The translations under genes were made by a program, and so were the position numbers. From assembly GCA_030614005.1 (NCBI GenBank), contig JAUWKS010000015.1, positions 1-32,000 of the forward strand: 32,000 nt of DNA, read 5' to 3'. Shown in pieces: positions 2,383 through 27,520 of the stretch (its first letter is position 1; the number at the start of each line of letters is the position of its first letter). The notes below the pieces were generated by a model, which did no database searches, was not told the origin of the DNA, and was given only the letters and a program-made list of their open reading frames with translations. This DNA is from Candidatus Heimdallarchaeota archaeon. Lineage in GTDB: Archaea > Asgardarchaeota > Heimdallarchaeia > JABLTI01.

Positions 2383-3015
2383 TCAAATTAAGGCGTTAGC
2401 AAATTCTTCTTGTAAATCAGCTTCTATTTTTGTAGCTAAATCACGTCTAAATGCAGGAGGCACAATACGTAGTGTTGTTATTAACATATCCAATATTTGG
2501 TCTACGATATTTTTAACATCAAAAGGTTTTATTTCAACCAAACCTTGAACTATTGCTTCTTCTACAAAAACTTTCACAACTGAGGATATAACTGCAAAGG
2601 TTATTCCTTCTTTTTCAATATAATATGGAAAATTCTTTCTATCGCGCAGAGTGAAAAAACCTTCTTGCTCAACAATAGAATTAATATACCAATCTAAGCT
2701 GGACTCATTTAACTCGAGTCTTTCAGAAAATTCTTTCTTTGAACTATGATTTGGGTACGATGCTGGAAGCCGATTAACTATATAGAGCGCAGCTGCATTC
2801 AGAGTTTTTTGATCCCTAGGGAAACCAGCTTTTGTAAGGTATTTTGCTACAACTTTTAAAGCAAAAATTTTGTATGATTCTTTTACTGAATAATCGCCAA
2901 AAAATTTGTAGGTATTTTTTAAGAATTGAATTGTCTCTTCTGGACTTGCTTGATCCCAGATGAGGTCAGTTTTCCCAAATGATTCTGTGTTCAAATTACT
3001 TACCCTTGTTTCCAA
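2383..3015 (-). CDS. Hypothetical protein with a TFIIB/cyclin-fold-like helical repeat
   Basis: LNAAALYIV...SKKEFSERLELNESSLDWYINSI resembles the TFB cyclin repeat (AAAxLYIA...TQxxVA...TxRNRxKEL; compare 12924-13973). TTG start, no Zn ribbon. Confidence 0.5.
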   Translation of the reverse strand: METRVSNLNTESFGKTDLIWDQASPEETIQFLKNTYKFFGDYSVKESYKIFALKVVAKYLTKAGFPRDQKTLNAAALYIVNRLPASYPNHSSKKEFSERLELNESSLDWYINSIVEQEGFFTLRDRKNFPYYIEKEGITFAVISSVVKVFVEEAIVQGLVEIKPFDVKNIVDQILDMLITTLRIVPPAFRRDLATKIEADLQEEFANALI

Positions 3016-3094: not shown

Positions 3095-3577
3095 TCATCG
3101 TCTTCTTTTTGTTTTAAATTTCTTTGCCAATTTTTCCCAAAATGGATGTTTGTGTAATTTCACATCTCCAACAGCTTTTCTTGGTACAATGTCTAACTCG
3201 AGTAAATCTTGATCAAATTCATTGAAAATTGAAGTATCAATTACTATATTATCAATTTTATTTGCATATTTCTCAAGGAAAATGCGATGTGTATCATTAA
3301 GTTGTTTCGTGATTTTTTCGCTGTTCTCTTCAATAGGGTTTGCAAAAACGAATATTAGTTCATTTTCTTCATCAACTTTAAAATTCAGTTTTAAGTTTTG
3401 GAAGAGAACTGATTGTATTCCCTGCTGACCAAACGATTCTTTGGAGAATGAATAGAGTGCCGCAAGAAAACCGCTCTGAAGTGCATGATCTGGATGCATT
3501 TTGCACGTTTTTCCGCCATAACACTTTGAGAATAGTGGTACTCCGGATGTTTTCAATATAATTACGTCATCAGCCAT
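3095..3577 (-). CDS. Longin-domain protein (Mon1/Fuz-longin-like)
   Basis: VIILKTSGVPLFSK...LQSGFLAALYSFSKE...LIFVF pattern of the longin beta-beta-alpha fold; ATG at 3577 (MADD). Confidence 0.8.
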   Translation of the reverse strand: MADDVIILKTSGVPLFSKCYGGKTCKMHPDHALQSGFLAALYSFSKESFGQQGIQSVLFQNLKLNFKVDEENELIFVFANPIEENSEKITKQLNDTHRIFLEKYANKIDNIVIDTSIFNEFDQDLLELDIVPRKAVGDVKLHKHPFWEKLAKKFKTKRRR

Positions 3578-3664
3578 TTTCTCATCATTCCTTTTTTTGT
3601 ATACATTAATTATTATCATTAATTAGAATTAGCATTTCTTTCAAAGAGCTAGATATGAATTTGT

Positions 3665-5323
3665 CTAAATCAAATATCGTCCACACTTTACGCAATAATG
3701 TTTGTTGTATTGTCGTATATATTTCGCATCGTCACCACAAATTGGACACTTGCTTTTCTTTTCAGTTTTTGTTGTACTTAAATGTTGACCAATCTGAGGT
3801 TCAGATGATTTTGTTTCATCCTCAGTCATATCTTTCAATTCAGAGATCATAGCACTTGAAAGTTCAGTTCCGATTACACTATCATCAGTAGGAACATGTT
3901 CATCTTCCTGAATTGGTATTAATGGTTCCTCTTCAATTATATCTACCAAATCGTTTTCTGGTATATCAACAAGTTCTTCTAATTCATCTATTGGAGTAGT
4001 AATGCTATCTTGAATAGTAATTTCCTCTGTTTCTGCTTGTGATGAAGAATCTTCATCAAAATCTAATAAACTCTCCAATACTTTTTGATCATCATCCAAT
4101 TTAGATTCATCAAGTGGAACCTCTTGGATTTCTTCGATGATCTTTTCTTCAATTATTTCTTCTGGTTCATCTATTTCAACTTGATCAATAACATTGTCCA
4201 TATCATCTGCATCACTTACCACAGATTCATCAATTGAAGCCAATACATCTAAATCATCTCTCATATCGCCTATAGTGTCTTCAATTTCCACTTTTTCTTC
4301 CTCTGTTTTTAGCCCATTTACTTTTACGTTTGTTATCTCTTCTTCCAAATCTTTTAATCTTGATGTCAAACTATCTAGTTGGAAATTAATTGAATTTAAT
4401 ACCCGTTCAAGTTCAGGTGTAATTAGAGGTTCAACTTCTTCTTGCTCGACTTTTTTACCTTTGATTGAATTCTTTGGAACAGTAATAACTCGTTCCCCAT
4501 CATCGGTTTTTTCTCGACCAATTATTATATCATTCGTTTCATCCAAAACAGACATGACTTCTTCGATTAGTTTTTCTGTTTCTTCATCATCCCTACCAAC
4601 CATTACTGATTTCTTGATTGGTTTTTCTTCTTTTTCTTCATCAAATGTTGAAACGATTATCATTGGCTCTATCAATGATTTTTCGGGCACGCTTGACTTC
4701 TCTTCAATGACTTCTGCTTTCTGCTTTATTGGAGCAACATCAATTGCATCTTCTACAGCTTTTACTGGTGTTATTCCCTCTCTTTCAAGTAAGCATTTAG
4801 CCATTAAATCAAAAGCAATGTCAATATTTTCTCCTGTTAAGGCTGAAGTTTCTATATATGCGCATTGTAGTCCAGAACTTTCCTTGAGGGCACTTGCAAA
4901 CTGCTCTCCAGTTTCTCTAGATATAACCCTCTTTCCTTTCAAATCAATTTTATTTGCACAAACAATAAAGATTTCAATTGTTCCATTTGAATACCTTATT
5001 GCTTCGTCTACCCAGGTTGATATACTATTAAGTGAATTGGAATTTGTAACATCAAATACTAGAAAACAAGCTGTTGCGCCACCATAAAAACTTGAACGAA
5101 TATATTTGTACTTGTCTTGTCCTGCGAGATCCCAAATTTGGAAAGAAGTCAAAAGGTTTCCAATTCTCGCTTTATAAGAGGAAAAATCAGCACCAACTGT
5201 AGAAATATATTCTTCTGCAAAATGTTCACCCATTGCTCTTTTCCTAATTGTAGTTTTACCTACAAAAGAGTCACCTGTAAGTACTATTTTCCAAAGGAAA
5301 TCAGCTTGTTTTTTATTTATCAT
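3665..5323 (-). CDS. Rab-like small GTPase fused to a long acidic linker and a C-terminal Zn ribbon
   Basis: G1 GDSFVGKT, G2/RabF1-like TVGADF, G3 FQIWDLAGQ, FYGGA, LVFDVTN, G4 NKID, G5 ETSA; roughly 330-aa D/E-rich region; CPIC...YCVKC at the C-terminus. Confidence 0.9.
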   Translation of the reverse strand: MINKKQADFLWKIVLTGDSFVGKTTIRKRAMGEHFAEEYISTVGADFSSYKARIGNLLTSFQIWDLAGQDKYKYIRSSFYGGATACFLVFDVTNSNSLNSISTWVDEAIRYSNGTIEIFIVCANKIDLKGKRVISRETGEQFASALKESSGLQCAYIETSALTGENIDIAFDLMAKCLLEREGITPVKAVEDAIDVAPIKQKAEVIEEKSSVPEKSLIEPMIIVSTFDEEKEEKPIKKSVMVGRDDEETEKLIEEVMSVLDETNDIIIGREKTDDGERVITVPKNSIKGKKVEQEEVEPLITPELERVLNSINFQLDSLTSRLKDLEEEITNVKVNGLKTEEEKVEIEDTIGDMRDDLDVLASIDESVVSDADDMDNVIDQVEIDEPEEIIEEKIIEEIQEVPLDESKLDDDQKVLESLLDFDEDSSSQAETEEITIQDSITTPIDELEELVDIPENDLVDIIEEEPLIPIQEDEHVPTDDSVIGTELSSAMISELKDMTEDETKSSEPQIGQHLSTTKTEKKSKCPICGDDAKYIRQYNKHYCVKCGRYLI

Positions 5324-5701
5324 TCTTTTTGTATCCCTTTATTTTATTCTCAAATGCTTTTGACAACAGTATTAATTATTTATTTCCTACGTTCTTTACT
5401 TTTTCGCTAAGATTAGCAGATTTTTATTGAAAAAGCAAATTTTTCTAATCTCAAATGATTTTTTTGTTCAGTATTGTTGGTCTTAACACATAGCTAAGGG
5501 CAATATCCAAATATTACAATCCCTTATTTTCAATAAATTCGTTCTTAATCATATAGAGGATATTACAAAGTAAAATCCTATTCGAATAAACGGCGTTTAC
5601 TTGTTATAAATTTAAGGTAAGCACCCATTTCCTCAAAGAATCTTTGGTGGAAGTATCTCCATAGAAACAGAAACAAAAAAATCTTGAGTGTGAATTGAAA
5701 G

Positions 5702-7183
5702 TTGGGTTATGATCCTAATAGACGTTGCATGAAATGCGGCAAAAGGAATGGTTTTCTATATTATTGTGAGGATTGTGGTGGCTCTTTCTGTAATGATTGT
5801 ATAGTTTCTGAAAAAACGGAATGTACATTTTGTAACGACTGTGCACATATTAGTGTAGGAAGCAAATGTGAAAAGTGTGGAAAAACCAATCAATTAACTG
5901 CTGCTAAAAGATATTTAAGGAAATGCCCCGGTTGTTCTTCTATAAGAATAAAAGATATCCCTAAGAAAATAGCTGGTCTCTCTTCTGAATATATTGAAGC
6001 GATTAATATCATTTATAGTGGTTTAGACATCATCCGTAATTTTGCTAGCAGTTTTTCAGAAGTTGTCAATCAAGCAAAATTCCTTCGTCGGGAAAGATTT
6101 GGCCTTTATCCTAATATTGAAAATAATTTAATACGTATTCAAGGTCAATTTTACGAAATTACTCAGCGTGCTATGGGACTCATTGATAAAGTCTATAAGC
6201 AAATTTTAAATGATGCCCGTTTGCTCCGATTTAATCATCGAGTAACTATTGATCAGCTTCCCAAAATAGATCGTGTGCTAAAAACGATCAAATATAATAC
6301 TCAAGGTTATTCTAATCTGATTAATGATTTTCTAAATGAAGCAAAAACAGAACTTGCTGATGTGAGAGAGCTCGTCAGCGAATTAAGAAATTACACTACT
6401 TATTTCGACGAAGTTTCAGATAAATTTGAACCTGAAATGCTCGAATTGAAAATCGCTGCAATACCAAATGTAAAAGTAACGCTACCGGACAATGGACGTA
6501 AAAGAAGAGGTACAATTTTCTTAACAAATAAGCATCTTTATTTCCTTCCAAATTTCAAATTTATTTTCCGTTTCCATGGAAAAATAAGAGCCATTCCTAT
6601 TTCGATGATACGAGAAGTTGAAACTAAAGAAAGAAAATTATTTAGCTCTTACTTAATGATCAATAGTCCTGATAGAAAATCAATGAAAATTCACTGTTCT
6701 AGAACGGAATTGGATCAGCTTAATTTTCTCTTTGGTGTTCTTTTCAATGAAAATGAAGGATATATTATTTCAGATCCATACTTTATCGAAGAACTAAGAA
6801 CTACTCTAGATTTCAGTGTTCTTCGAGAAAAAGTTGAACGCCGTATTAAAGATTTGAAACAGATACCATTTACTCAAATCGTCCAACAACAACATCAACA
6901 AAATATTTGGCAAAGAGGACCTATTGTTAACGTTAATGTAGAAAGCAATGAAACTAAACAACTAAGAATTAAGCTTAGAGCAGCAAGGGACACCCTTAGC
7001 CAATTAGAGAAAGCTTTTGAGGATCGAAGTATAACTCCGGAAATCTATTTCTCACGGTTGGAAAAGACTCGAGAGAAAATAATTTCCTTAGAAGAAAAAT
7101 TGAAAGATATTATGCGAATAAATACTGGTTACCAACAACACCAGCAACCAAATTTTTCTGATTTTCTAAGGAATGTAAGATAA
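5702..7183 (+). CDS. Multidomain protein: Cys-rich Zn fingers, helical/coiled coil, GRAM/GLUE-like PH domain, steadiness-box-like C-terminus
   Basis: Six CxxC pairs in the first ~80 aa (CMKC, CEDCGGSFCNDC, CNDC, CEKC, CPGC); GTIFLTNKHLYF; AARDTLSQLEKAFEDRSITPEIYFSRLEKTREK. TTG start. Confidence 0.6.
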   Translation: MGYDPNRRCMKCGKRNGFLYYCEDCGGSFCNDCIVSEKTECTFCNDCAHISVGSKCEKCGKTNQLTAAKRYLRKCPGCSSIRIKDIPKKIAGLSSEYIEAINIIYSGLDIIRNFASSFSEVVNQAKFLRRERFGLYPNIENNLIRIQGQFYEITQRAMGLIDKVYKQILNDARLLRFNHRVTIDQLPKIDRVLKTIKYNTQGYSNLINDFLNEAKTELADVRELVSELRNYTTYFDEVSDKFEPEMLELKIAAIPNVKVTLPDNGRKRRGTIFLTNKHLYFLPNFKFIFRFHGKIRAIPISMIREVETKERKLFSSYLMINSPDRKSMKIHCSRTELDQLNFLFGVLFNENEGYIISDPYFIEELRTTLDFSVLREKVERRIKDLKQIPFTQIVQQQHQQNIWQRGPIVNVNVESNETKQLRIKLRAARDTLSQLEKAFEDRSITPEIYFSRLEKTREKIISLEEKLKDIMRINTGYQQHQQPNFSDFLRNVR

Positions 7184-7326
7184 TTTACTCAATTAAAGCA
7201 AAATAAACAAAAAAGCATTTAAGATAAAAAATTTACACCAACCTAAACTTTAAATTGAGACAAAAAGTACTTTAGCATAAAACTAATAACCAAAACAAGC
7301 AAATGCTTTCAATGAGGTTCTAAACA

Positions 7327-7890
7327 TTGCGCAAGGATAGTCAGGGCAGAATTCACTTAAAAATTGTCTTCTACGGACCCTCCCTTAGTGGGAAAACAAC
7401 TGGATTACGATGGCTCTACGACCAAGTAGAAGGACTAACGAAAGGTGGTTTTACTTCAATTGCTGACCCCACTGGTAGAACACTCTATTTTGATTTTACA
7501 CCCTTTTCAGCTTCTGGAAGAGTAATTTTAGATGCTTATACAGTTGCTGGGCAAACAAGGCACAAAAGTCAAAGAAAAGTGATTTTAAGAGGAGTAGATG
7601 GAATAATTCTCATGCTTGATTCCACACCAGAAATGCAGAAATTTAATCAAGAATCTGTGGATGAATTACAAGAATTTCTTGGGGATCGATTTGGTACTGA
7701 AGTACCAATTGTTATATCATTAAATAAACGAGATGTACCTGGTGCTTTAACTCGTCCTGAAATGCTTTCAGGGTTAGAATTAGAGGGCTACCCTGTTTAT
7801 GAAACCATTGCAACTAAAGGTATTGGTATCAAAAGGGCATTTCAATCTATTGCAAGAGAAATTCTCTTAAAACAATTATATGGAAAATAG
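7327..7890 (+). CDS. mglA: MglA-like small GTPase
   Basis: KIVFYGPSLSGKTT, RTLYFDF, YTVAGQ, RKVILRGVDG, NKRD, ETIA are collinear with Myxococcus MglA motifs; TTG start. Confidence 0.85.
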   Translation: MRKDSQGRIHLKIVFYGPSLSGKTTGLRWLYDQVEGLTKGGFTSIADPTGRTLYFDFTPFSASGRVILDAYTVAGQTRHKSQRKVILRGVDGIILMLDSTPEMQKFNQESVDELQEFLGDRFGTEVPIVISLNKRDVPGALTRPEMLSGLELEGYPVYETIATKGIGIKRAFQSIAREILLKQLYGK

Positions 7891-12127: not shown

Positions 12128-12348
12128 CTAATTAGCGTTATTCCAATCCTCTTCCATTTTTCTCAGAAAATCATCTGATTTATTAGTGATTTCGAAGTAT
12201 TACTCAATCATTTGTATTATAAAATAAACTGCTAACTTTTAGTAAAACTTCTGTTTATGTATAGCTAAAGCTAATAATAATTAGTTTGTACAGAAGGAGG
12301 CAATTTTTCTTGACTGAAAATGAAGACGCTTGTGAAATAGTATCTAAA

Positions 12349-12735
12349 ATGAAACTAACATTGACCACTGGTAAAAAATGGGGCAGTTCAACTGATGATC
12401 CCGTTAAAGTATTCATTGGAGAACACTCCTGGGAACTTACCCATCCATATTGTGATGATTTTGAAAAAGGCAAAACCGATGTTTTTAATCTTGATATACC
12501 TGAAGGTTTGACTTCTGATTGGTTTCAATATTTCTGCTTTAAGAAAGAACACCCAATTATGGGTGATAAATGGTTGTTAACTGGTGTTAAATTGGAAATT
12601 AATGATAGAGTTATCTATGATTCGGGTGAAATTAAAATTTGGTTTGAAGGTGGGAAAACACAATGGTGCATTCCTGACTTAAATTATGGCAAATGTCGAG
12701 GCAATGTTAGCCCTGATTTTAATGTTAGCCATTAA
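12349..12735 (+). CDS. Stand-alone PLAT/LH2-domain protein
   Basis: LTLTTGKKWGSSTDDPVKVFIG, DDFEKGKTDVF, DKWLLTGVKL match the PLAT pattern (V.TG...AGTD..V; FE.G..D.F; W.L..V). ATG at 12349; the track starts at TTG 12286. Confidence 0.7.
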   Translation: MKLTLTTGKKWGSSTDDPVKVFIGEHSWELTHPYCDDFEKGKTDVFNLDIPEGLTSDWFQYFCFKKEHPIMGDKWLLTGVKLEINDRVIYDSGEIKIWFEGGKTQWCIPDLNYGKCRGNVSPDFNVSH

Positions 12736-18048: not shown

Positions 18049-18831
18049 ATGGAACCTTGGCTTATTACAATTATTGTTTTAGTGATTGTTACATTTGGTG
18101 TTCTTATCCTCTTATTATTAGGAGGAATTAAGATTGCTTTGGAATATGAACGAATAGTTATTTTTCGTTTAGGAAGATATGTTCGAACTATCGGACCCGG
18201 TATGGTTTATATTACTCCATTCCTTGAAAAAGGTCGAAAAGTCGACATGCGAATAATTACACAAGATATCCCTCGTCAAGAAGTTATTACTCGAGACAAT
18301 ATCCCTGTATTAGCTAATACCGTTGTCTACTTTAAAGTTGAAAATCCACAAGATGCTATTATTAAAATTGAAAATTATGTGTATGCAGTCAGACAATACA
18401 CACAAGCAGCATTGAGAGATACTGTTGGTATTATGGAATTAGACCAAGTGCTAACTGAACGTGATAGGATCGCTGAGGATATTAGAGAAATTGTCGATAA
18501 AGAAACAAATGAATGGGGAATTGATATTAAAGCTATCAAAATCCAAGAACTTGAATTACCTGCAGAAATGAAAAGAGCGTTTGCAATGCAAGCAGAAGCA
18601 GAAAGAGAAAAACGAGCAATAATCATTAAAGCTGAAGGAGAAATGATCGCTTCCAAAAAGTTTGCTGCTGCTGCAAGAGAAATGGCGACTGCACCAGGCT
18701 CTCTTCAATTAAGAACATTGCAGACAATAAGAGATATAGCTCAAGATCCCAGTGAAAAAATCGTTATCTTTATGCCAAACGATCTATCGGATGTAGCTTC
18801 AAAAGTCATTAGAAGAACTACTAAGAAATAG
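18049..18831 (+). CDS. SPFH/band-7 stomatin-like membrane protein
   Basis: N-terminal TM helix, EYERIVIFRLGR, QEVITRDN, QAEAEREKRA, LQLRTLQT. Confidence 0.95.
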   Translation: MEPWLITIIVLVIVTFGVLILLLLGGIKIALEYERIVIFRLGRYVRTIGPGMVYITPFLEKGRKVDMRIITQDIPRQEVITRDNIPVLANTVVYFKVENPQDAIIKIENYVYAVRQYTQAALRDTVGIMELDQVLTERDRIAEDIREIVDKETNEWGIDIKAIKIQELELPAEMKRAFAMQAEAEREKRAIIIKAEGEMIASKKFAAAAREMATAPGSLQLRTLQTIRDIAQDPSEKIVIFMPNDLSDVASKVIRRTTKK

Positions 18832-26689: not shown

Positions 26690-27520
26690 TTAACTCATTA
26701 ATATTTTAGTTGTTATGAATACAGCTTTTTCTGTATCTTTACGTGAAGGGCGGTAATTCTCGTGATCGATTCTATTTAATATGAGATTAACAAATTTGAA
26801 ATCTTTCAAAGCTTCTAATCCCTTAGCAGCTCCTTTGTCGATTAACATACCAAGTGTTAATTGTTCATCAAACATACCCATTCTTACTCTTAATTCAGCT
26901 TCTACACTATGAGCACATTCTTTTATACATTCACGAAAATTTCCTTCATCAAGTAACAATTCATAAGTTGTTTTTGTTGGAAGATCTATTTTCTCCTTAG
27001 GGGGGACATCTTTTGGTTTGCGTGGTTGAGGGGAGGGAGGAGGTATATCACCAGCTTTCTTTGGTTTATCCTGTGGACCATCTTCACCTCTCATCATTTT
27101 AGCAGTCATATCATCTGATGGAGGAGGGGGTGGAGGAGGAGTTTTATCTTTAGGAGGAGGAGGTAATGGTACATGTTTTTTTTCGGAAGGAGGGGGAGGA
27201 AGAGGAGGTTTATCCTTTGAAGGAGATGGTCGACTACCTGCCTTTGGTGTGCTTGGTAAATCCTTAGCTAAATCTATATCGGCCGGTGGACCTGAAATGA
27301 GAATTTTAATCTCTTTTGCACGTTTAATATACTCCTTTGCTTTTACATAATAACTATCACGTATTTTTCGTGTTTTTTCCATGGCAATTAGCTGATTCAA
27401 GAGTTCAGCCGATTCTAAGAATAATTCAAAAGCAGCCGTTAAATCTCCATTTCTTTCAGCGCGTATTGCTTTATTAGCGGTTTTTTTAACACGATCAAAA
27501 AGGTATTTCGTTGGGGACAT
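26690..27520 (-). CDS. MIT domain + proline-rich linker + HEPN/DUF4145-like domain protein
   Basis: KAIRAERNGDLTAAFELFLESAELL...YIKRAKEIK (MIT); PPLPPPP/PPPPPPP runs; GNFRECI..VEAELR..LGMLID..LILNRIDH..SRKDTEKA. Confidence 0.75.
   Translation of the reverse strand: MSPTKYLFDRVKKTANKAIRAERNGDLTAAFELFLESAELLNQLIAMEKTRKIRDSYYVKAKEYIKRAKEIKILISGPPADIDLAKDLPSTPKAGSRPSPSKDKPPLPPPPSEKKHVPLPPPPKDKTPPPPPPPSDDMTAKMMRGEDGPQDKPKKAGDIPPPSPQPRKPKDVPPKEKIDLPTKTTYELLLDEGNFRECIKECAHSVEAELRVRMGMFDEQLTLGMLIDKGAAKGLEALKDFKFVNLILNRIDHENYRPSRKDTEKAVFITTKILMS

Follow-up and report, generated by a model that had tools for sequence, protein, structure and literature searches.

Known trafficking-type genes in a lineage-specific juxtaposition in Heimdallarchaeia, with an ESCRT-I-like adaptor gene next to mglA

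Asgard archaea possess many components known from eukaryotic trafficking, yet almost nothing ties their GTPases to effectors. In eukaryotes, longin platforms serve as guanine nucleotide exchange factors (GEFs) of Rab GTPases. In Myxococcus and Thermus, MglA and the Roadblock protein MglB form a polarity switch (3T12, 6H17), and the bacterial mglBA arrangement places the Roadblock gene ahead of mglA. The Asgard family Znr_PH_CC_SB, or Znr_CC_PH_SB (asCOG cog.011556), was proposed to be an ESCRT-I component (Makarova et al. 2024, mBio, PMC10936438). Asgard Rab-like GTPases have also been described (7EZB; Tran et al. 2024, PMC10933270); according to that study, Asgard GTPase genes generally do not share operons with longin or Roadblock genes, and gene order is rarely helpful for them.

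The window analyzed here is a 32,000-nt stretch of DNA from a Heimdallarchaeia genome, assembled from samples of marine sediment or of a cold seep. Four eukaryote-like trafficking genes lie side by side in this Heimdall archaeon, encoding a longin protein, a Rab-like GTPase, an ESCRT-I-like adaptor and the GTPase MglA. ORF calls, Pfam, Foldseek and phmmer confirmed the ORFs and domain types of the initial annotation, as well as its head-to-head layout, in which the Rab-like gene on the minus strand and the adaptor gene on the plus strand diverge across a gap of 378 nt (5324..5701). Synteny of all four genes across relatives, on which its functional reading depended, was not found; beyond one genus, only the pairing of the adaptor gene with mglA persisted. 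The four-gene layout was restricted to that genus, where it is part of a collinear 12-kb block that includes housekeeping genes, in the order acyltransferase, TruA, hyp210, longin, Rab, adaptor, MglA, Prx, DUF255 and UDP-Glc dehydrogenase. Because the whole block is collinear, synteny within the genus is uninformative. We consider it probable that these are four separately evolving genes, which stand together only in one Heimdallarchaeia genus, and not a conserved four-gene machine. The parts are known and their juxtaposition is lineage-specific, with one modest new lead, the coupling of the adaptor with MglA. Identities, folds, distribution and gene order were observed directly, and we infer every molecular role given below.

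The 493-aa protein encoded on the plus strand at 5702..7183 is a member of the published Asgard Znr-CC-PH-SB family, a putative ESCRT-I component, its membership of cog.011556 being assigned from architecture and homology and not from an accession. Its relatives comprised 143 representative clusters among 1.84 billion proteins and, as in the described family, were restricted to Asgard archaea and shared three N-terminal Zn ribbons, a helical or coiled-coil region, a PH domain and, at the C-terminus, a hairpin that may correspond to a steadiness box. The three Zn ribbons (residues 9-78, nt 5726-5935) contained 11 cysteines in CxxC pairs, which were invariant across 16 aligned members, and the AF2 model (pLDDT 83.7) showed short β hairpins at these residues. 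The helical region (residues 86-237) was followed by a GRAM/GLUE-type PH domain (residues ~238-352, nt 6413-6757; ~233-352 in the structural comparison), which was recognized with Foldseek and VIA-align. Structural overlays revealed that its fold superposes on the GLUE domain of Vps36/EAP45 and the PH-GRAM domain of myotubularins with root mean square deviations of 2.5-3.5 Å over ~108 residues; the Z-scores were 13.4 for MTMR2 (2.5 Å, 108 aa) and 13.3 for EAP45. In contrast to these proteins, the adaptor has neither the winged-helix ESCRT-II core of Vps36/EAP45 nor the phosphatase domain of myotubularins. The Pfam GRAM score was below threshold (17.8 vs 23.6 bits), and no FYVE signal was found in the protein. 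The C-terminal hairpin (residues 416-475, nt 6947-7126) was modeled by AF2 as a helix-turn-helix. Its Pfam Vps23_core score of 19.5 bits (E 1e-3) was below the cut-off of 26.8 but equal to those of UEV-Vps23 (19.7) and Vps28 (18.9) from the same genome, and profile searches against the PDB and with hhalign gave no significant match.

The genomic surroundings distinguish the host-family gene from its relatives. Adaptor relatives adjoin ESCRT genes, in the arrangements Snf7-Snf7-Vps4-Vps25 in family f2 and UEV-Vps23/Vps28 in family f5; the relative P0057, whose clade is sister to that of the f1 genes, adjoins Snf7-Vps4-Vps25-Vps22, and P0072 also lies in an ESCRT neighborhood. In contrast, no ESCRT gene was found near the host gene or any other gene of the host-family clade, which is ~20% identical to other Heimdall versions and always precedes mglA. 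The adaptor is the sole Znr-CC-PH-SB member of the host family, and the ESCRT genes of the host genome lie dispersed on contigs C1, C9 and C85, with UEV-Vps23 and Vps28 together on C1. The protein would most likely function as an ESCRT-I-like adaptor, with the PH domain on the membrane, the Zn ribbons binding cargo or a partner, and the C-terminal hairpin docking onto the UEV-Vps23/Vps28 pair.

Judged from its sequence, the 187-aa protein encoded downstream on the plus strand (7327..7890) is a true MglA. A phmmer search against the PDB gave Thermus MglA (3T12) at 3e-37 over essentially the full length (residues 8-182) and Myxococcus MglA at 1e-35, and the next family, Arl8, followed at 2e-8. 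It has a P-loop (G17-T24) and, like the bacterial proteins, the NKRD motif, T72-V-A-G-Q76 (TxxGQ) instead of DxxGQ, and Arg51, which occupies the site of the intrinsic arginine finger of MglA. The gene is present as a single copy in 77 of the 82 class genomes, and in six other Heimdall families (f2-f7) a Roadblock/MglB-like gene directly precedes it, as in bacterial mglBA. In the host, by contrast, mglA stands behind the adaptor gene, apart from its two Roadblock genes. Both Roadblock orthologs are present in all 12 host-family genomes with 85-100% identity, away from mglA, and in the host genome they lie on a separate contig (G000:C110). The regulators of MglA are likely these two Roadblock proteins and not the longin protein; the class-wide, single-copy MglA most likely still cycles with them. 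MglA and the two highly conserved Roadblock proteins provide a cognate set for experiments.

The order of adaptor gene and mglA was kept across the whole host family, which comprises 12 GTDB species, and likewise on six additional metagenome contigs (L052, L053, L132-L134 and, partially, L054). The pairing persisted at adaptor identities as low as 46% and outlasted changes of the outer neighbors: on the upstream side, G011 and L052 have a glycosyltransferase gene, and on the downstream side, L052 has TauE. This adjacency, seen in 12/12 family genomes and the six contigs, argues for an alternative in which the two genes form a unit, MglA is coupled to the ESCRT-I-like adaptor in the host family, and the Rab-like and longin genes are bystanders; GTP-bound MglA would bring the PH/Zn-ribbon adaptor to a membrane site or release it there, which would amount to a small-GTPase-to-ESCRT recruitment step. 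The alternative is also favored by the position of the adaptor gene, which stands, perhaps not by accident, in the slot held by the Roadblock gene in all other families, and by the departure of the family's only adaptor from the ESCRT clusters in which its relatives reside. In addition, a gene for a Roadblock-GTPase fusion stands two genes upstream of P0064, a distant member of the family. However, Prx, DUF255 and UDP-Glc dehydrogenase are equally stable downstream, which suggests that the block is merely slow to rearrange; MglA showed no accelerated divergence, and neither of its Roadblock partners has been lost; and among independently sampled contexts outside the host family, only one of eight had GTPase neighbors. 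The spacer between the two genes (7184..7326, plus strand, 143 nt) also speaks against a single unit, as it varies between 143 and 416 nt in the family and, in an alignment of nine family loci, contains a conserved TATA-like box, CTTTAAATT, at 7248-7256 on the plus strand. This box suggests a separate mglA promoter, and a GAGGT motif (7314-7318, plus strand) lies 8 nt ahead of the TTG start of mglA. On balance, we regard the two-gene unit as unlikely. Its stronger form, in which the MglA switch was rewired when the gene left the Roadblock/MglB operon, so that MglA-GTP positions the adaptor, and hence ESCRT-I/II/III, at a defined membrane site, seems quite unlikely, but if true, it would be a prokaryotic precedent for a small GTPase that recruits ESCRT machinery.

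On the reading of four separately evolving genes, the Rab-like gene (3665..5323, minus strand, 552 aa) probably arose by duplication of a Rab-like GTPase gene and is specific to the genus. In the protein, the GTPase domain (residues ~1-185, nt 4769-5323) is connected by ~340 aa of acidic linker to a Zn ribbon at the C-terminus (CPICG...CVKCG, ~nt 3674-3754). It matched Pfam Ras at 1e-39, and its best PDB matches, at 6e-33 to 1e-32, were the Thorarchaeota Rab 7EZB (6e-33) and Ypt1/Rab1, with which it shares Rab-family-like core motifs. In contrast to these proteins, it lacks C-terminal prenylation cysteines, in whose place the acidic linker and Zn ribbon are found; the terminus reads ...CVKCGRYLI, with no CaaX, CC or CXC motif. 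The Zn ribbon is probably a protein-based anchor that replaces the lipid tail, and the protein documents a Rab-like subfamily with a Zn ribbon at the site of the lipid anchors of eukaryotic Rabs. A 414-aa paralog at G000:C30 has the same Zn ribbon and architecture. Full-length orthologs were present in all ten genus genomes and nowhere else among the 82 class genomes; the one other trace was a C-terminal fragment in bin G044, labelled f2, where it adjoins a longin copy. Upstream of the adaptor gene, the sister genus and L052 carry a glycosyltransferase gene and not a Rab-like gene.

The longin ORF on the minus strand is open from 3095 to 3619, but its real start lies at 3577, because the start MADDV is conserved, which gives a protein of 160 aa (3095..3577). 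Its Pfam Fuz_longin_1 score of 26.1 bits was exactly equal to the cut-off, and the AF2 model (pLDDT 76.6) showed the topology β-β-α-β-β-β-α-α. The top Foldseek matches were all longin proteins (AP sigma, Mon1/Ccz1, SRX and TRAPP, including Bet5/Trs23), with the same longin topology, a fold-match probability of 1.0 and 12-24% identity. In contrast to these, the host protein is a single domain with no particular subfamily assigned and has no partner gene; no second longin, such as the heterodimer partner in Mon1-Ccz1, adjoins it at the locus. An invariant loop, C19-x-G-G-x2-C25-x3-P-D-H31, is present. Orthologs occur across the class Heimdallarchaeia with 47-62% identity, and in the other families none had GTPase neighbors; in f2, f3 and f7 the neighbors were Prx, flavodoxin, GTP cyclohydrolase, Dna2 or TFIIB. 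Within the host genus, the gene was intact in six of 13 distinct loci and deleted or a pseudogene in seven (G010, G002, G009, G007/L053, L132, L133 and L134), in which the Rab-like gene remained intact, and the assemblies G009, G002 and G010 contained no intact longin ortholog anywhere. The gene is probably best viewed as a class-wide stand-alone longin that is undergoing loss in the genus.

A second alternative limits the functional link to the Rab-like and longin genes, with longin as a dispensable accessory regulator of the Rab-like GTPase where both are kept. The tight, same-strand arrangement, in which 46 nt separate longin from the Rab-like gene upstream of it (3619/3577 to 3665), and the longin fold, a known GTPase platform (PMC10933270), are consistent with such a pair. 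We nevertheless find it very doubtful, as longin is older than the Rab-like duplicate and, in genus g2, adjoins hyp210-TruA with no Rab-like gene, has been lost repeatedly, and would depart from the general absence of Asgard GTPases from operons with longin or Roadblock genes (Tran et al.).

The 378-nt divergent region was compared in an alignment of seven genus loci and gave no Rfam match. A 23-nt element at 5511-5533, unique in the genome, precedes the adaptor gene at every locus of the family, even where the Rab-like gene is missing; on this conservation pattern, it is an element of the adaptor gene alone. The co-regulated two-GTPase circuit of the initial annotation, in which longin would act as GEF or GAP of the Rab-like protein and both GTPases would drive adaptor recruitment as an analogue of Rab conversion and ESCRT recruitment, has hardly any likelihood, although all four domain types are present head-to-head across 378 nt, Foldseek matched longin to the Rab GEF platforms Mon1/Ccz1 and TRAPP, and six genus genomes with intact longin keep the layout, since the layout is genus-restricted, longin is often lost beside an intact Rab-like gene, its orthologs elsewhere are without GTPase neighbors, and the cis elements are separate for each gene. 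Attractive as it was, the four-gene circuit was removed as unsupported because only the adaptor-MglA pairing is kept beyond one genus, and the remaining lead, which is cheap to test, is the family-wide adjacency of MglA and a putative ESCRT-I adaptor in the slot occupied by MglB elsewhere. A further conserved block in the divergent region lies near the Rab-like gene, at 5392-5409.

Gene calling bore out the layout given in the initial annotation, with the ORFs of all four genes in place. On the minus strand lie a longin ORF (3095-3619) and a gene for a 552-aa Rab-like GTPase (3665-5323); on the plus strand, across a gap of 378 nt, the gene for a 493-aa adaptor (5702-7183) is followed after a 143-nt spacer by mglA, encoding a 187-aa GTPase (7327-7890). 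Housekeeping genes flank the four on both sides, namely hyp210, TruA and an acyltransferase on one and peroxiredoxin, a DUF255/thioredoxin-like protein and UDP-glucose dehydrogenase on the other. The 210-aa product of hyp210 (2383-3015, minus strand) is 67-95% identical across the family and had no match in Pfam or NCBIfam; its stop and the TruA start share 4 nt, and in the Atlas it belongs to a hypothetical cluster confined to Asgard. The window has a G+C content of 33%, and its source bin is 3.6 Mb in size and 90% complete; the sequencing runs that hold the genome are DNA metagenomes from marine sediment and cold seep, with no RNA run listed. The four genes had been taken as one co-regulated circuit; the best-supported reading is a lineage-specific juxtaposition whose members have their likely partners encoded elsewhere.

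The 12-kb gene order was collinear in 10/10 same-genus genomes, and since the housekeeping genes were equally collinear, conservation within the genus was uninformative on function. As a four-gene layout the arrangement was found in the genus only. The part that survived beyond the genus was the adaptor gene followed by mglA, an order present in 12/12 genomes of the window's family and in all additional family-type contigs examined that extended beyond the adaptor gene, with adaptor identity as low as 46% among the loci keeping it. A glycosyltransferase gene lay upstream of the adaptor gene in the sister-genus genome G011 and in metagenome contig L052.

The longin start MADDV is conserved, giving a protein of 160 aa (3095-3577). 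Its AF2 model (pLDDT 76.6) revealed a b-b-a-b-b-b-a-a order, which is that of a longin and not of a Roadblock domain, and Foldseek matched it to the longins of AP sigma, Mon1/Ccz1, SRX, zeta-COP, TRAPP and Sec22. Between strand 2 and helix 1 we also observed an invariant loop, C19-x-G-G-x2-C25-x3-P-D-H31, where AF2 confidence is low; this loop may be a metal or partner-binding site without counterpart in known longins. The gene was intact in six loci of the genus, present only as a remnant in G010 and G002, interrupted by in-frame stops in G007/L053, and absent from G009, L132, L133 and L134; an intact ortholog was not found elsewhere in the G009, G002 and G010 assemblies. In G011 it is placed between TFIIB and hyp210-TruA, away from the adaptor gene, and the orthologs in three other families of the class (f2, f3 and f7; 47-58% identity) have unrelated neighbours and no GTPase genes beside them. 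With losses of longin this frequent and the Rab-like gene intact throughout, longin cannot be indispensable to any circuit that joins the two.

The GTPase domain of the Rab-like protein was closest to a solved Thorarchaeota Rab and to Rab1/Ypt1. Next come an acidic linker (about 340 residues) and a C-terminal CPxCG...CxxC Zn ribbon, and no prenylation motif was found in the 552-aa sequence. The same genome encodes a 414-aa paralog on another contig (C30:20619-21860, minus strand) with the same C-terminal Zn ribbon (CPxCG...QYN..YC..C), there preceded by a coiled coil and an acidic linker, pointing to a small subfamily of Rab-like GTPases with Zn-ribbon tails. Full-length orthologs of the window's gene were limited to the genus and other genomes held the shorter paralog group only; the window's gene is a genus-specific duplicate. 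The one exception was a Rab-like C-terminal fragment beside a longin copy in a bin labelled as family f2 (G044). Two short contigs of that bin, C48 and C49 (L059 and neighbours), carry genus-type Rab-like, longin and hyp210 genes, the longin at 62% identity; their presence probably reflects a mis-binned contig or cross-contamination between bins.

Shared control across the divergent gap did not hold up either. The gap contains a 23-nt element, ATATTACAATCCCTTATTTTCAA (5511-5533), which occurs once in the genome and precedes the adaptor gene at all family loci with 0-4 mismatches, at a variable distance of about 60-190 nt from the adaptor start. Loci where the Rab-like gene is missing keep it too, so it belongs to the adaptor gene rather than to control shared by both genes; possible roles are a promoter element, a leader element or a site for a regulator. 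An Rfam search of 5250-7400 gave zero matches. The adaptor-mglA spacer ranges from 143 to 416 nt across family loci and contains a conserved TATA-like CTTTAAATT about 75 nt upstream of the mglA start, with GAGGT 8 nt upstream of that start, so mglA may have its own promoter.

In the adaptor, 11 invariant Cys are arranged in three Zn-ribbon-like units; after these come a helical stretch, a PH domain and, at the end, a helical hairpin. This is the architecture of the published Asgard family Znr_PH_CC_SB, proposed as an ESCRT-I component (PMC10936438). The best superpositions of the PH domain were on the myotubularin PH-GRAM domain (Z 13.4, 2.5 Å) and the EAP45/Vps36 GLUE domain (Z 13.3). The steadiness box is weakly supported: the adaptor scored 19.5 bits on Vps23_core, below the cut-off of 26.8 and at the same level as UEV-Vps23 (19.7) and Vps28 (18.9) of the same genome. 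A C-terminal profile run against the PDB with hmmsearch returned coiled coils alone, and in hhalign the Vps23 and Vps28 of this genome reached probabilities of 5-7%. Many Foldseek DH-PH matches suggested a RhoGEF-like reading of the helical and PH part, which was rejected on the VIA-align result (rmsd 7-10 Å, score no higher than for the PH domain alone).

Several relatives of the adaptor adjoin ESCRT genes: Snf7-Snf7-Vps4-Vps25 in f2, UEV-Vps23 and Vps28 in f5, and Snf7-Vps4-Vps25-Vps22 beside P0057, from the sister clade of the window family's genes. P0072 has a Snf7 gene nearby, and a gene for a Roadblock-GTPase fusion lies two genes ahead of P0064; the neighbours of the remaining relatives examined had no telling identity. 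In the window's genome the ESCRT genes are spread over contigs C1, C9 and C85, with UEV-Vps23 and Vps28 at C1:24160-25564. A locus search with the narrower adaptor alignment found the window's family alone. Of two distant sister-clade members, L158 (GCA_019058315.1) and L159, one is followed by a ribophorin-I-like gene and has the Roadblock-GTPase fusion two genes ahead of it, and the other is preceded by inositol-1-phosphate synthase and metallophosphatase genes. The window's adaptor gene is the sole Znr_CC_PH_SB member native to its family. A second copy lies in an f2-type ESCRT cluster on a 3.6-kb contig of the same bin (C107:1-3653, locus L041) with two Snf7 genes, AtpC, hyp127 and a small Zn-ribbon protein. 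We rejected it as a paralog: it falls within the f2 clade, the Snf7 genes next to it share 86-91% identity with f2 genomes, and both copy and Snf7 cluster are missing from the other 11 family genomes. The contig is probably foreign or mis-binned; its tetranucleotide composition is unremarkable.

Full-length matches identify the 187-aa product as a true MglA (E 3e-37 to Thermus MglA, 1e-35 to Myxococcus MglA), with Arl8 as the next best family (E 2e-8); it carries TxxGQ, NKRD and an Arg at the intrinsic-finger position. In NCBIfam, the sole match was to the generic small_GTP domain. The gene is single-copy in 77/82 Heimdallarchaeia genomes. In the six other families a Roadblock/LC7 gene lies directly upstream of mglA on the same strand, and often a second one downstream; in the window's family the upstream slot is taken by the adaptor gene. 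Here the Roadblock/MglB-like orthologs lie away from mglA, as a convergent pair on C110 (64008-64313, plus; 64405-64899, minus), and C20:32765-33145 holds an ortholog of the Roadblock/MglB-like genes flanking mglA in those six families. Both Roadblock orthologs were kept in 12/12 family genomes at 85-100% identity, a conservation equal to that of MglA. Identity of MglA between the window's family and the others was 58-65%, inside the range among the other families, and by this measure MglA is without extra divergence.

Under the juxtaposition reading, the adaptor would act with UEV-Vps23/Vps28 and the other ESCRT proteins, MglA with the Roadblock pair, and the Rab-like duplicate with partners not among its neighbours, while longin would be a dispensable stand-alone platform. 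The family-wide adaptor-mglA adjacency is the single locus feature that could mean more; it is a lead only, and linkage to the housekeeping genes further downstream is equally stable. The protein kinds are known: the Znr_CC_PH_SB family from Makarova 2024, the Rab-like, MglA, longin and Roadblock proteins of Asgard archaea from Tran 2024 (PMC10933270), and the Asgard MglA groups from bioRxiv 10.1101/2024.02.28.582541. New are the move of mglA in one family from a Roadblock operon to behind an ESCRT-I-like adaptor, the erosion of longin in the genus and the Zn-ribbon-tailed Rab-like subfamily.

Elsewhere in the window we observed three further trafficking-flavoured genes, encoding a 276-aa protein that has an MIT domain at its N-terminus but lacks an AAA ATPase (26690-27520, minus strand), a stand-alone PLAT/LH2-like domain (12286-12735, plus strand; Pfam 22.8 bits against a cut-off of 23) and an SPFH/Band 7 protein (18049-18831, plus strand).
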